NCBI RefSeq assembly: GCF_000026545.1
Contig: NC_011601.1
Source of the DNA: Escherichia coli O127:H6 str. E2348/69
Lineage (GTDB): Bacteria > Pseudomonadota > Gammaproteobacteria > Enterobacterales > Enterobacteriaceae
DNA: 64,000 bases
Strand: one strand, 5' to 3'
Shown: positions 8,601-50,292 of the stretch, piece after piece
Layout of the letters: the number at the start of each line of letters is the position of its first letter
Numbering within the stretch: the stretch's first letter is position 1
Program-made: the position numbers and the translations under genes
Notes under the pieces: generated by a model
Told to the model about the DNA's origin: nothing
What the model saw: only the letters and a program-made list of their open reading frames with translations
The model's database searches: none

Positions 8601-8690
8601 TGATTATTTATTATCGTCATTAAGTTAGTCGTGGCATTTCGAATGCCTGGAACGGGCAACGCCGTCAATGAAATGGATGTTAAGGCATCC

Positions 8691-8698
8691 AGACGTCT
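8691..8698. promoter_or_regulatory. Candidate MetJ met-box (AGACGTCT) upstream of metN
   Basis: Perfect AGACGTCT octamer about 90 bp upstream of metN start in the metN/gmhB divergent region. Confidence 0.4.
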
Positions 8699-8787
8699 AA
8701 ATCAATCAGGTTTATGCGAAGAGCACTTTCTTGCAGGTCGAAACATGCGATACTAGCGTCACATGCCTTATTAAGGAGCTATAAAAG

Positions 8788-9360
8788 GTGGCGAAGAGCG
8801 TACCCGCAATTTTTCTTGACCGTGATGGCACCATTAATGTCGATCACGGTTATGTCCATGAGATCGACAACTTTGAATTTATCGACGGTGTTATTGACGC
8901 CATGCGCGAGCTAAAAAAAATGGGCTTTGCGCTGGTGGTAGTAACCAACCAGTCTGGCATTGCTCGCGGTAAATTTACTGAAGCACAGTTTGAAACGCTG
9001 ACCGAGTGGATGGACTGGTCGCTGGCGGACCGCGATGTCGATCTGGATGGTATCTATTATTGCCCGCATCATCCGCAGGGTAGTGTTGAAGAGTTTCGCC
9101 AGGTCTGCGACTGCCGCAAACCACATCCGGGGATGTTTTTGTCAGCACGCGATTATTTGCATATTGATATGGCCGCTTCTTATATGGTGGGCGATAAATT
9201 AGAAGATATGCAGGCAGCGGCTGCGGCGAGCGTGGGAACAAAAGTGCTGGTGCGTACGGGTAAACCTATTACGCCTGAAGCAGAAAACGCGGCAGATTGG
9301 GTGTTAAATAGCCTGGCAGACCTTCCGCAAGCGATAAAAAAGCAGCAAAAACCGGCGTAA
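8788..9360 (+). CDS. gmhB: D-glycero-beta-D-manno-heptose-1,7-bisphosphate 7-phosphatase GmhB
   Basis: 190-aa ORF from GTG; HAD motif FLDRDGTIN; immediately upstream of rrn operon. Confidence 0.85.
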
Positions 9361-9403
9361 TGATTAAAAGATGAGCGGTTGAAATGAAAATGCATTTTTC
9401 CGC

Positions 9404-9431
9404 TTGTCTTCCTGAGACGACTCCCTATAAT
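9404..9431 (+). promoter_or_regulatory. rrn P1 promoter (-35 TTGTCT, 16-bp spacer, -10 TATAAT)
   Basis: cttgtcttcctgagacgactccctataatgcgcc closely resembles rrn P1 core promoters with GC-rich discriminator. Confidence 0.6.
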
Positions 9432-9513
9432 GCGCCTCCATCGACACGGCGGATGTGAATCACTTCACACAAACAGCCGGTTCGGTTGAAGAGAAAAATC
9501 CTGAAATTCAGGG

Positions 9514-9541
9514 TTGACTCTGAAAGAGGAAAGCGTAATAT
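9514..9541 (+). promoter_or_regulatory. rrn P2 promoter candidate (-35 TTGACT, -10 TAATAT)
   Basis: ttgactctgaaagaggaaagcgtaatat about 110 bp downstream of P1. Confidence 0.5.
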
Positions 9542-9582
9542 ACGCCACCTCGCGACAGTGAGCTGAAAGCCCCGTCGCAACT

Positions 9583-9595
9583 GCTCTTTAACAAT
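9583..9595 (+). promoter_or_regulatory. boxA antitermination element in rrn leader
   Basis: TGCTCTTTAACAA matches boxA consensus in 16S leader. Confidence 0.6.
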
Positions 9596-9725
9596 TTATC
9601 AGACAATCTGTGTGGGCACTCGAAGATACGGATTCTTAACGTCGCAAGACGAAAAATGAATACCAAGTCTCAGGAGTGAACACGTAATTCATTACGAAGT
9701 TTAATTCTTTGAGCATCAAACTTTT

Positions 9726-11267
<1,542 letters not shown>

Positions 11268-46523: not shown

Positions 46524-48624
<2,101 letters not shown>

Positions 48625-48734
48625 TGTTTGAAGATTGTTGTGCCGTATTTGTGACATACACATGACAACATCATGCATCAACTTTCTGTTTGTGCCATCA
48701 ACTATAGCTTAGTGAATGCGGTTAATGCTTGCTA

Positions 48735-48808
48735 AAACAGATAGTTATGATTGGTGCTACAGATTCGTAATGCGAAGGTCGGAGGTTCGACTCCTATTAT
48801 CGGCACCA
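48735..48808 (+). repeat. Degenerate duplicate of thrW 3' portion (ptwF-like pseudo-tRNA / island attachment-site repeat)
   Basis: 48763-48808 matches thrW 3' 46 nt with one mismatch; following ttaaatcaataagttac also resembles sequence after thrW. Confidence 0.6.
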
Positions 48809-48899
48809 CTTAAATCAATAAGTTACACATCATTAATACCTTCCTTATTTTTTGATTGGGACAGATTTGGGACCGATGGGTTCAGGATCGAATCTATTT

Positions 48900-49017
48900 A
48901 CCGTGCGTGTTCGGTAAGGTGATTAGGTGCGAGGTGAGCATATCGACGAACCATTTCGAGAGTTTCCCATCCGCTCATTTTTAAGTGCAAGCAGGGAAAC
49001 ACCGGACTAAACCTATC
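48900..49017 (-). pseudogene. Second short integrase-gene fragment
   Basis: About 115 bp similar to 45575-45690 inside the integrase remnant (shared gaaccatttcgagagtttcccatcc...ttaagtgcaag...caccggact). Confidence 0.45.
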
Positions 49018-49194
49018 AGCTGTTCGAAAATGGCAAGCGGATTAATATGCCATGGCGGCTTTGAGCCGCACGCATGGGGTGTGGCAAGCCTGATGGATGT
49101 TGCTGTGCTTGTGGTGGCGTGTTTGCTGGTCTGGTTGTTGGTTAATCGCGAAAATCATTATGCCTGAGGAATACCACAGGACGTTCAGGTTTTG

Positions 49195-49224
49195 CATAAA
49201 AAAGCCCACCATTAAGGTGGGCAA
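49195..49224 (-). terminator. Candidate rho-independent terminator (minus strand) upstream of yagU
   Basis: GCCCACC-attaa-GGTGGGC stem with A-run on plus strand (U-tract on minus). Confidence 0.4.
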
Positions 49225-49429
49225 AAGGAATGATTTATATTCTCTGAGAGAGACATTACATTTCTCCTTGCCACTTCTAACATAAAAATATGGAGAAATA
49301 ATGGAGCTTATATTAATTGGCGATTAGGTAATCATGTGGTTATACAAAACAATACAGTTCTTTACATTTGCCTTGTTTTATGAATACTCCTAAAGAGGTG
49401 TATAACATAATGGTACAAGCAGGGTAGAT

Positions 49430-50044
49430 ATGAATATATTTGAACAAACTCCACCAAACCGCAGACGTTATGGTCTTGCTGCATTCATTGGGCTGATTGC
49501 TGGCGTTGTTTCCGCATTTGTGAAGTGGGGGGCTGAAGTTCCATTGCCGCCACGTAGCCCGGTGGATATGTTTAATGCAGCGTGTGGCCCGGAATCATTA
49601 ATCAGGGCTGCTGGGCAAATTGATTGCTCCCGTAATTTTCTCAATCCTCCGTATATTTTTCTTCGAGACTGGTTGGGGCTGACAGATCCCAATGCGGCTG
49701 TTTATACCTTTGCCGGGCATGTCTTTAACTGGGTTGGTGTTACGCACATTATCTTTTCGATAGTGTTTGCTGTCGGTTATTGTGTGGTCGCTGAAGTATT
49801 TCCAAAAATTAAACTCTGGCAGGGCTTACTGGCAGGTGCTTTAGCCCAACTTTTTGTTCATATGATTTCATTCCCTCTCATGGGACTGACGCCACCTCTG
49901 TTTGATCTCCCGTGGTATGAGAATGTCTCTGAAATTTTTGGACATTTAGTCTGGTTCTGGTCTATTGAAATTATTCGCAGAGATTTACGAAACAGAATTA
50001 CCCATGAGCCAGACCCTGAGATCCCTTTAGGCTCAAATAGATAA
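49430..50044 (+). CDS. yagU: Inner-membrane protein YagU (DUF1440)
   Basis: 204-aa ORF starting [30 protein letters not shown]; multiple TM segments. Confidence 0.85.
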
Positions 50045-50056
50045 TGCTTTGAATGA

Positions 50057-50087
50057 TAAAAATGGCGCAAATATAGCGCCATTTTTA
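50057..50087 (+). terminator. Rho-independent terminator after yagU
   Basis: AATGGCGC-aaatata-GCGCCATT hairpin followed by TTTTT. Confidence 0.65.
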
Positions 50088-50292
50088 TAGGTTAAAAACG
50101 TTGCTTTTCATATTCTGATGCGGACAGTAAGTGATCATATCGCGCTACTTCAGGATGATGTAGGTCCGGAGAACGCTACAGAAGAAGAGGCATTGTTGCT
50201 GGAAAATGGAAGAAGTTTCAGGTTTTGTTGTCCCTGAAAAACGAAGCCCCGCTATTACAGCTGGCGGGGCAATGCAATTAATTATTGTATAT

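Follow-up and report, generated by a model that had tools for sequence, protein, structure and literature searches.

The window analysed here is a 64,000-nucleotide stretch of the chromosome of Escherichia coli O127:H6 E2348/69, and the locus of interest lies within it, just upstream of yagU. Positions 48700-49500 of the window are 100% identical to three assemblies of E2348/69 (EPEC). Adding 224000 to a window position gives the NC_011601 coordinate, the same offset holding for NZ_LT827011, and yagU occupies 273430-274044 in both of these records and 49430-50044 in the window. From left to right, the order is proBA, thrW, a truncated integrase gene, an IS3 element interrupted by ISEc21, a tRNA-Thr fragment, a second integrase remnant on the minus strand, a small ORF, a hairpin, yagU, ykgJ and ecpEDC. 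The features discussed below are the following.

48765-48811 (about), plus strand: 3' fragment of thrW (tRNA-Thr), an att-site copy where the upstream IS-riddled island ends on its right side
48823-48981, minus strand: remnant of the 3' end of an integrase gene from a thrW-targeting phage, recognised by sequence match and carrying an internal stop
48985-49167, plus strand: 60-codon ORF with a GTG start, read here as a pseudogene fragment, with phage-gene homology over about 49021-49148
49149-49267, no strand assigned: orphan segment that holds the hairpin, without a match in K-12-type genomes
49198-49203, minus strand: U6 tail, the last U of which is the lowest RNA2 end in published RIL-seq data (NC_011601 273198)
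49204-49222, minus strand: terminator stem-loop GCCCACC-UUAAU-GGUGGGC, with 7 bp, 6 of them G-C pairs, and a 5-nt loop
49198-49286, minus strand: the RNA published as yagU.E2348C_0240.IGR (the IGR RNA), with a minimal extent of 89 nt, RNA1 5' ends at 49281-49286 and a 3' end at 49198
49266-49272, minus strand: GGCAAGG motif, which matches the PP6 sRNA target motif in the published Table S7
49361-49388, plus strand: candidate yagU promoter TTTACA-16-AATACT, from a sequence scan

Island remnants and the boundary with core DNA

ARAGORN called no tRNA at 48765-48811. Next to this fragment, positions 48820-48980 are 92% identical to the 3' end of the integrase genes of SfII, SfI and SfIV, all of which are thrW-integrating phages, and 76% identical to P22 int. 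Between the first, thrW-adjacent truncated integrase gene and the tRNA-Thr fragment lies a broken IS3-family element, inside which we found the transposase gene of ISEc21 (IS110 family) at 47216-48292, with further parts at 48411-48617 and upstream. The remnants of two successive thrW islands therefore stand here in tandem.

The first-pass annotation had placed an island boundary between these remnants and yagU, and comparison with K-12 agrees with it. Homology to K-12 starts at about 49262-49268 and runs rightward; on its left, 270 nt of other sequence separate this junction from paoA in K-12. Of 5426 complete E. coli genomes, 1299 (24%) contain a 101-nt segment spanning the hairpin and the RNA, and in 1286 of those carriers, CFT073 and Nissle 1917 among them, it is at least 99% identical. 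The K-12-type paoA-yagU spacer was found in 3580 genomes. In many carriers, thrW directly adjoins the integrase remnant; in others, a newer element lies between thrW and the scar, namely an intact prophage in an IMG/VR contig and the IS-riddled island in E2348/69.

To the right of the boundary, the major plus-strand Cappable-seq start site of K-12 (U00096.2 302183) corresponds to about 49398 in the window, close to the candidate yagU promoter. Ler represses yagU about 3-fold in EPEC (PMC3891560), and a differential-expression table in a second EPEC study lists yagU at a log2 value of -1.4, alongside the ecp genes (PMC8550237). The AT-rich region upstream of yagU may be a target of Ler or H-NS.

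The far side of yagU also carries phage sequence. In the gap between yagU and ykgJ, a 39-codon plus-strand ORF (50118-50237) encodes a Tfa C-terminal motif (…ATEEEALLLE…), and PGAP annotates its ST131 copy as 'tail fiber assembly protein'. Published coordinates, converted to the window, indicate that 50118-50237 appears to be the location of EcsR2, an sRNA of the yagU-ykgJ intergenic region that was mapped by 3' RACE and is reported to occur in 66 of 66 E. coli genomes examined (PMC4350180). In the same gap, at 50062-50082, a perfect 7-bp hairpin (ATGGCGC…GCGCCAT) has T-runs on each side and has the form of a two-way terminator, readable on both strands; it separates the convergent genes yagU and ykgJ, and the yagU 3' end in the K-12 3'-end tables (TRS) falls here (303649-303651). 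Lying between colinear phage tail-fibre fragments, yagU may itself be surrounded by a very old prophage scar. We rejected a precise insertion of yagU between the phage 97-aa gene described below and its truncated tfa neighbour, because, downstream of yagU, the remnant of tfa reaches further in the 5' direction than does the one in phage 21 or BL21.

A decayed fragment of a phage membrane-protein gene

The 60-codon plus-strand ORF reported earlier, with its hydrophobic peptide and GTG start, is present at 48985-49167. In RefSeq, it takes a shorter form with an ATG start (49030-49167), annotated as a 45-aa hypothetical protein, WP_000146238.1. The proposal that it encodes a small membrane protein fared poorly: it contains the last third of a 97-aa gene of phage origin and has no Shine-Dalgarno sequence. 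Other E. coli genomes have single or multiple copies of the DNA at 49021-49148, at 81-84% identity. In BL21, the match falls in the Rac prophage, within a 97-aa gene and at 84% DNA identity, and the encoded protein belongs to phrog_1443 (E = 2e-58); the window ORF covers positions 62-96 of the 97 in that family, which is well short of full length. Pfam gave no match.

Phage 21 and many lambda-like phages carry identical intact copies of the 97-aa gene. The phage 21 annotation describes the product as a putative membrane protein with two TMDs; its gene stands last, behind the side tail fibre, and the convergent cargo genes sitDCBA come after it. In IMG/VR_UViG_2872678658_000005 (8656-10557), an intact thrW prophage lies upstream of the same scar, and behind its phrog_1443 gene, of 95 aa, stands a convergent cargo of three genes, encoding a ParA-like P-loop protein of 281 aa and proteins of 132 and 221 aa; this cargo may be a defence or partition module. 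Residues 23-55 of the window ORF align to the C-terminal third of phage 21 gp24 (phrog_1443). Unlike gp24, however, the window copy lacks about the first two thirds of the gene and its last codons, and it is frameshifted with respect to the family and fused to the integrase remnant.

Decay of the ORF was followed in an alignment of six loci, from E2348/69, an ST131 isolate, EC17GD31, IMT16316, isolate '648' and the IMG/VR contig. Because of a 5-bp indel at 49057, the hydrophobic part shares its frame with the 49030 ATG in one haplotype only; in the other haplotype, that ATG gives 22 codons before a stop, and an ATG at 49048 opens the frame of the hydrophobic part. The TGA that ends the frame in E2348/69 (49165-49167) is private to that strain; at the other loci, the frame continues as far as a TAA within the hairpin loop and gives 61 or 57 aa, so that the ORF takes three forms (45, 61 or 57 aa) across the six loci. 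Changes in the shared frame comprise nine nonsynonymous and one nonsense against two synonymous, and we take this ratio to indicate neutral drift. Where conservation of the ORF had been proposed as a check, we thus find that start, frame and stop differ between strains and that substitutions follow a neutral pattern.

Could a 45- or 60-codon ORF nonetheless have been retained from the phage as the gene of a functional small membrane protein or toxin? The hydrophobic segment at its C-terminal end has its homologue in the second transmembrane segment predicted for the phage protein, some open frame persists across the segment in all six loci, and PGAP annotates it. Against this, positions 62-96 of the 97-aa family are all that is present, start, frame and stop vary between haplotypes (45, 61, 57 aa), and the substitution pattern is neutral. 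None of the possible starts (48985, 49030, 49048) has a Shine-Dalgarno sequence in front of it, and a scan found no plus-strand promoter upstream of the ORF. Of the marks of a small membrane protein or type I toxin (an RBS, a conserved ORF and an overlapping antisense RNA), none was found; the 3' end of the minus-strand RNA of E2348/69, at 49198, is 31 nt past the stop of the ORF, and the two do not overlap. We therefore regard a functional product as very improbable indeed and conclude from these alignments that the ORF is a neutrally decaying pseudogene fragment of a phage gene. WP_000146238.1, WP_000146240.1 and their relatives, in about 1300 complete genomes, would be better annotated as such.

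A terminator and the Hfq-bound RNA that ends at it

The clean hairpin with an adjacent A-run reported at 49195-49224 is also present. On the plus strand, the DNA reads GCCCACC-ATTAA-GGTGGGC at 49204-49222, with AAAAAA (49198-49203) before the stem; the minus-strand RNA across hairpin and tail reads GCCCACCUUAAUGGUGGGCUUUUUUA, with the stem at 49222-49204 and U6 at 49203-49198. The stem-loop has a folding energy of -15.2 kcal/mol (z = -2.6 relative to shuffles) and is unchanged in all six aligned loci. On the plus strand, the stem runs into AAAAGG, so the shape of a terminator exists on the minus strand only. A strict motif, which required 7 bp or more of perfect stem including 5 or more G-C pairs, then a loop of 3-8 and a T-run, has nine matches on the two strands of the 64-kb window and a mean of 0.07 per dinucleotide shuffle; the hairpin is therefore not a product of chance. 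A simple terminator scan of 2.5 kb gave 3 sites versus 2.5 in shuffles, which is no excess.

The earlier observation that no annotated minus-strand gene precedes the hairpin also stands, since none lies to its right before ykgJ. In its G-C-rich perfect stem, short loop and U6 tail, and in having an RNA that ends at the tail, the hairpin resembles canonical Rho-independent terminators, from which it differs in having no annotated gene before it. The gene that it first served has presumably been lost. We rejected the idea that it once ended the pao or yagP operon and survived a deletion there, given that K-12-type genomes contain no match to 49149-49267.

Evidence for use of the terminator comes from published data. 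Supplementary tables of an Hfq RIL-seq study in the same strain list a minus-strand RNA, 'yagU.E2348C_0240.IGR', with three partners (PMC8550237). It is RNA2 in 36 chimeric fragments with sroC (273198-273220, minus strand) and in 14 with escC (273198-273234, minus strand; odds ratio 148, p = 1.6e-19), and it is RNA1 (273281-273286) in 12 fragments with the PP6 prophage sRNA E2348C_1409.E2348C_1408.IGR (PMC8550237). These significant chimeras, 62 fragments in all, show association with Hfq, with two of the three partners significant in one library or pooled set only (PMC8550237). Table S5 of that study gives the longest U tract as 6 and counts 50 fragments in the activating condition, 50 of 50 as RNA2, and 12 in the non-activating condition, 0 of 12 as RNA2 (PMC8550237). 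Abundance is low, at about 900 of 18 million RIL-seq fragments, near that of XylZ or ZbiJ (PMC8550237).

The meaning of the from and to columns in these tables was deduced from other rows of the same tables. For minus-strand sRNAs, the lower RNA2 coordinate lies no more than about 3 nt from the 3' end mapped by the authors: the minor form of PasA has its 3' end at 743264 and chimera ends that start at 743267, and the PP6 sRNA has its 3' end at 1444797 and chimera ends at 1444795-1444800. Because both rows fit, we read 273198 (window 49198, the last U) as the 3' end of the RNA. The Table S7 site UGUUAGAAGU-GGCAAGG-AGAAAUGUAA is an exact match to the minus strand at 49282-49256, which confirms the mapping of the IGR RNA to the window. 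The 106-nt interval given in Table S7 (273231-273336) was considered as evidence of a longer RNA and rejected, as it corresponds to the range of 5' ends with 50 nt of padding per side. The RNA1 5' ends lie within 6 nt of each other (49281-49286), and the true start of the RNA may lie further upstream than 49286. As delimited here (49198-49286), the RNA folds at -24.9 kcal/mol (z = -2.9).

The transcript end that had been predicted near 49195 is thus matched by RIL-seq fragments whose 3' ends reach NC_011601 273198, window 49198. From the sequence and these published 3' ends, we conclude that the hairpin is a genuine terminator used in vivo. The suggestion of an unannotated small RNA is borne out to the extent that an Hfq-bound minus-strand RNA ends at the hairpin tail; a regulatory role for it is hypothetical.

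This RNA was considered as a form of EcsR2 and rejected, since EcsR2 belongs to another locus, downstream of yagU. The two share a neighbourhood, and EcsR2 sits in the stretch with the decayed phage tail-fibre-assembly gene (50118-50237); unlike EcsR2, the IGR RNA is a minus-strand RNA from the upstream side of yagU and is encoded in only 24% of complete genomes. The nearer comparison is with the accessory sRNAs of EPEC (PasA-D and E2348C_1409.E2348C_1408.IGR; PMC8550237), which come from the same strain and data set and are likewise Hfq-bound, with a terminator hairpin and U tail in prophage-derived DNA. Those sRNAs, however, have 10-41 partners, mostly in CDS or 5'UTR, and shared seed motifs, and the Pas sRNAs were seen on Northern blots, whereas the IGR RNA has three partners, is about 10-100 times less abundant and received no sRNA call.

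The RNA also contains a potential reading frame. On the minus strand, 49212-49269 comprises AAGGAG, 7 nt and then a 14-codon ORF at 49256-49212 (MSLSENINHSFCPP), whose stop falls in the terminator loop; an AUG-UAA start-stop lies just upstream. The Shine-Dalgarno-like AAGGAG (49264-49269), which the GGCAAGG motif (49266-49272) overlaps, is AAAGAG at the ST131 locus, and codon 2 of the 14-codon ORF differs in E2348/69. GGCAAGG itself requires the base at 49271, which is private to E2348/69; the other five loci have GACAAGG. Further bases private to E2348/69 among the six loci occur at 49252 and 49332.

Among the carriers, NZ_CP148323.1 has a 24-bp deletion corresponding to window 49233-49256, in the body of the RNA, and keeps the terminator. 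Its 75%-identity match had been considered as a divergent variant, which was rejected, since it is the same locus with the deletion. This genome is a natural variant that could be used for a functional test.

Origin and regulatory potential of the RNA

In a lambda-type prophage map, int lies beside attL and the tail-fibre/b region beside attR. The orientation of the scar fits a lambda-type prophage, and we infer that this map applies here. We read the locus as the scar of an old lambdoid prophage that once occupied thrW, of which about 160 bp of the integrase 3' end remain, joined to the last third of the 97-aa membrane-protein gene; deletion of nearly the whole prophage joined the tail of the integrase gene to that of a late phage gene. 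Next to the right comes a 120-nt orphan segment with the leftward Rho-independent terminator, and the scar abuts the core upstream region of yagU. Relatives of the orphan segment were found in no phages, plasmids or representative genomes of other species, and a search for the exact hairpin 22-mer with one genome per species gave four chance matches, in unrelated bacteria only. The single IMG/VR match to the hairpin segment is the same E. coli locus, beside an intact thrW prophage.

The published data indicate that weak leftward transcription, which begins at 49286 or to its right, in or near the yagU upstream region, ends at the U6 tail at 49198 and yields an RNA of at least 89 nt; the hairpin and U tail would let this RNA load on Hfq, where it was ligated to SroC, escC mRNA and the prophage sRNA. 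Its 5' part would be core DNA common to K-12, and its 3' 70 nt (49198-49267), with the terminator, would be confined to carriers of the scar. We read the product as a young and scarce 'proto-sRNA' created by rearrangement, which may have little or no regulatory effect. Taken together, a prophage scar, a terminator in use, a low-abundance proto-sRNA and an ORF that is not a gene make up the account that we consider probable.

How much regulation such an RNA exerts is a separate matter. The authors of the RIL-seq study left it out of their 13 new sRNAs, and it is not in their Table S6 (PMC8550237). Their rule calls for at least three partners, of which more than 67% are in CDS or 5'UTR (PMC8550237), and the partners here are one sRNA, one CDS and one IGR, a proportion below that threshold. 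A PWM scan of 49270-49470 found no convincing minus-strand sigma-70 promoter; the best score was 4.4, below the median best score of 5.7 in random 201-nt segments of the 64-kb window, and the best weak candidates were TTAATA-18-CATATT (start at about 49280) and ATGATT-17-TATAAG (start at about 49300). Rfam gave no family at the gathering threshold, the best being Hrs12 at 25.4 bits versus 70, and all of the weak matches were due to the terminator. The K-12 3'-end tables (TRS) contain no minus-strand end upstream of yagU, which is expected because K-12 lacks the hairpin.

That the RNA is a true Hfq-dependent regulatory sRNA of the carrier lineages (E2348/69, CFT073, Nissle), which in EPEC would pair with the mRNA of escC, the type III secretion secretin, and take part in titration with SroC and the prophage sRNA, has some points in its favour. 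It has a U6 tail and always occurs as RNA2, as is typical of sRNAs, in the activating condition; the odds ratio for escC chimeras is 148; and a two-helix escC duplex (8 + 7 bp, -18 kcal/mol), involving CAGAGAA and AUCAUUC of the sRNA, is predicted to lie 20-50 nt downstream from where the escC chimeras have their 5' ends. The predicted pairings, however, do not rise above background, 14% of random segments scoring as well with escC and 48% as well with SroC (-15.8 kcal/mol). The small number of partners, the authors' own rule and the want of a clear promoter also speak against it, as does the dependence of GGCAAGG on a base private to E2348/69. Identity over the segment reaches 99-100% in 1286 of 1299 carriers, and the two haplotypes, about 8% apart in the adjacent ORF remnant, show no fixed difference within it; such identity may, however, reflect young lineages or recombination. 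In the six-locus alignment, the haplotypes differ at 10 sites and the indel in 49057-49182 and at no fixed site in 49183-49391, a low divergence among six related sequences that could come either from constraint on the RNA together with the control region of yagU, or from recombination; EC17GD31 is visibly mosaic further right. We consider a regulatory sRNA of this kind unlikely, and think it more likely that the RNA does little.

A bolder form of the same idea holds that a lineage-restricted Hfq-dependent sRNA was born by rearrangement, when a fossil phage-island terminator came to lie beside the core upstream region of yagU, and was then drawn into the EPEC virulence network through escC pairing and cross-talk with SroC and the prophage sRNA, the latter through a site created by the private mutation at 49271. 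We hold this to be distinctly unlikely; if true, it would be a datable case of sRNA birth and target acquisition inside one species. The RNA might instead be the stable processed 3' end of a longer minus-strand transcript, either antisense to yagU or reading through from ykgJ. The intergenic region offers no good promoter, and 3' fragments are protected by terminator hairpins and bound by Hfq, which favours this reading; on the other hand, the strong two-way terminator at 50062-50082 in the gap between ykgJ and yagU should block leftward transcription, which makes read-through from ykgJ unlikely, and the 6-nt cluster of RNA1 5' ends suggests a defined end. Processing from a longer transcript therefore seems to us quite improbable, and we retain the proto-sRNA produced by weak leftward transcription as the better account.

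The importance of the finding is modest. What is new here is a minor example of a familiar class and not a new kind of element: an overlooked Hfq-bound RNA with a clean terminator, unnamed in the published EPEC interactome tables that already contain it. The locus neighbours EcsR2, already an example of sRNA emergence in work whose theme was the creation and destruction of sRNA genes by rearrangements (Raghavan et al. 2015; PMC4350180). Were the RNA functional, it would be a compact case of sRNA birth, with a core 5' end and an island 3' end, present in 24% of genomes and not in K-12. If it has no function, it would illustrate how leftover terminators make background transcription into stable Hfq ligands.
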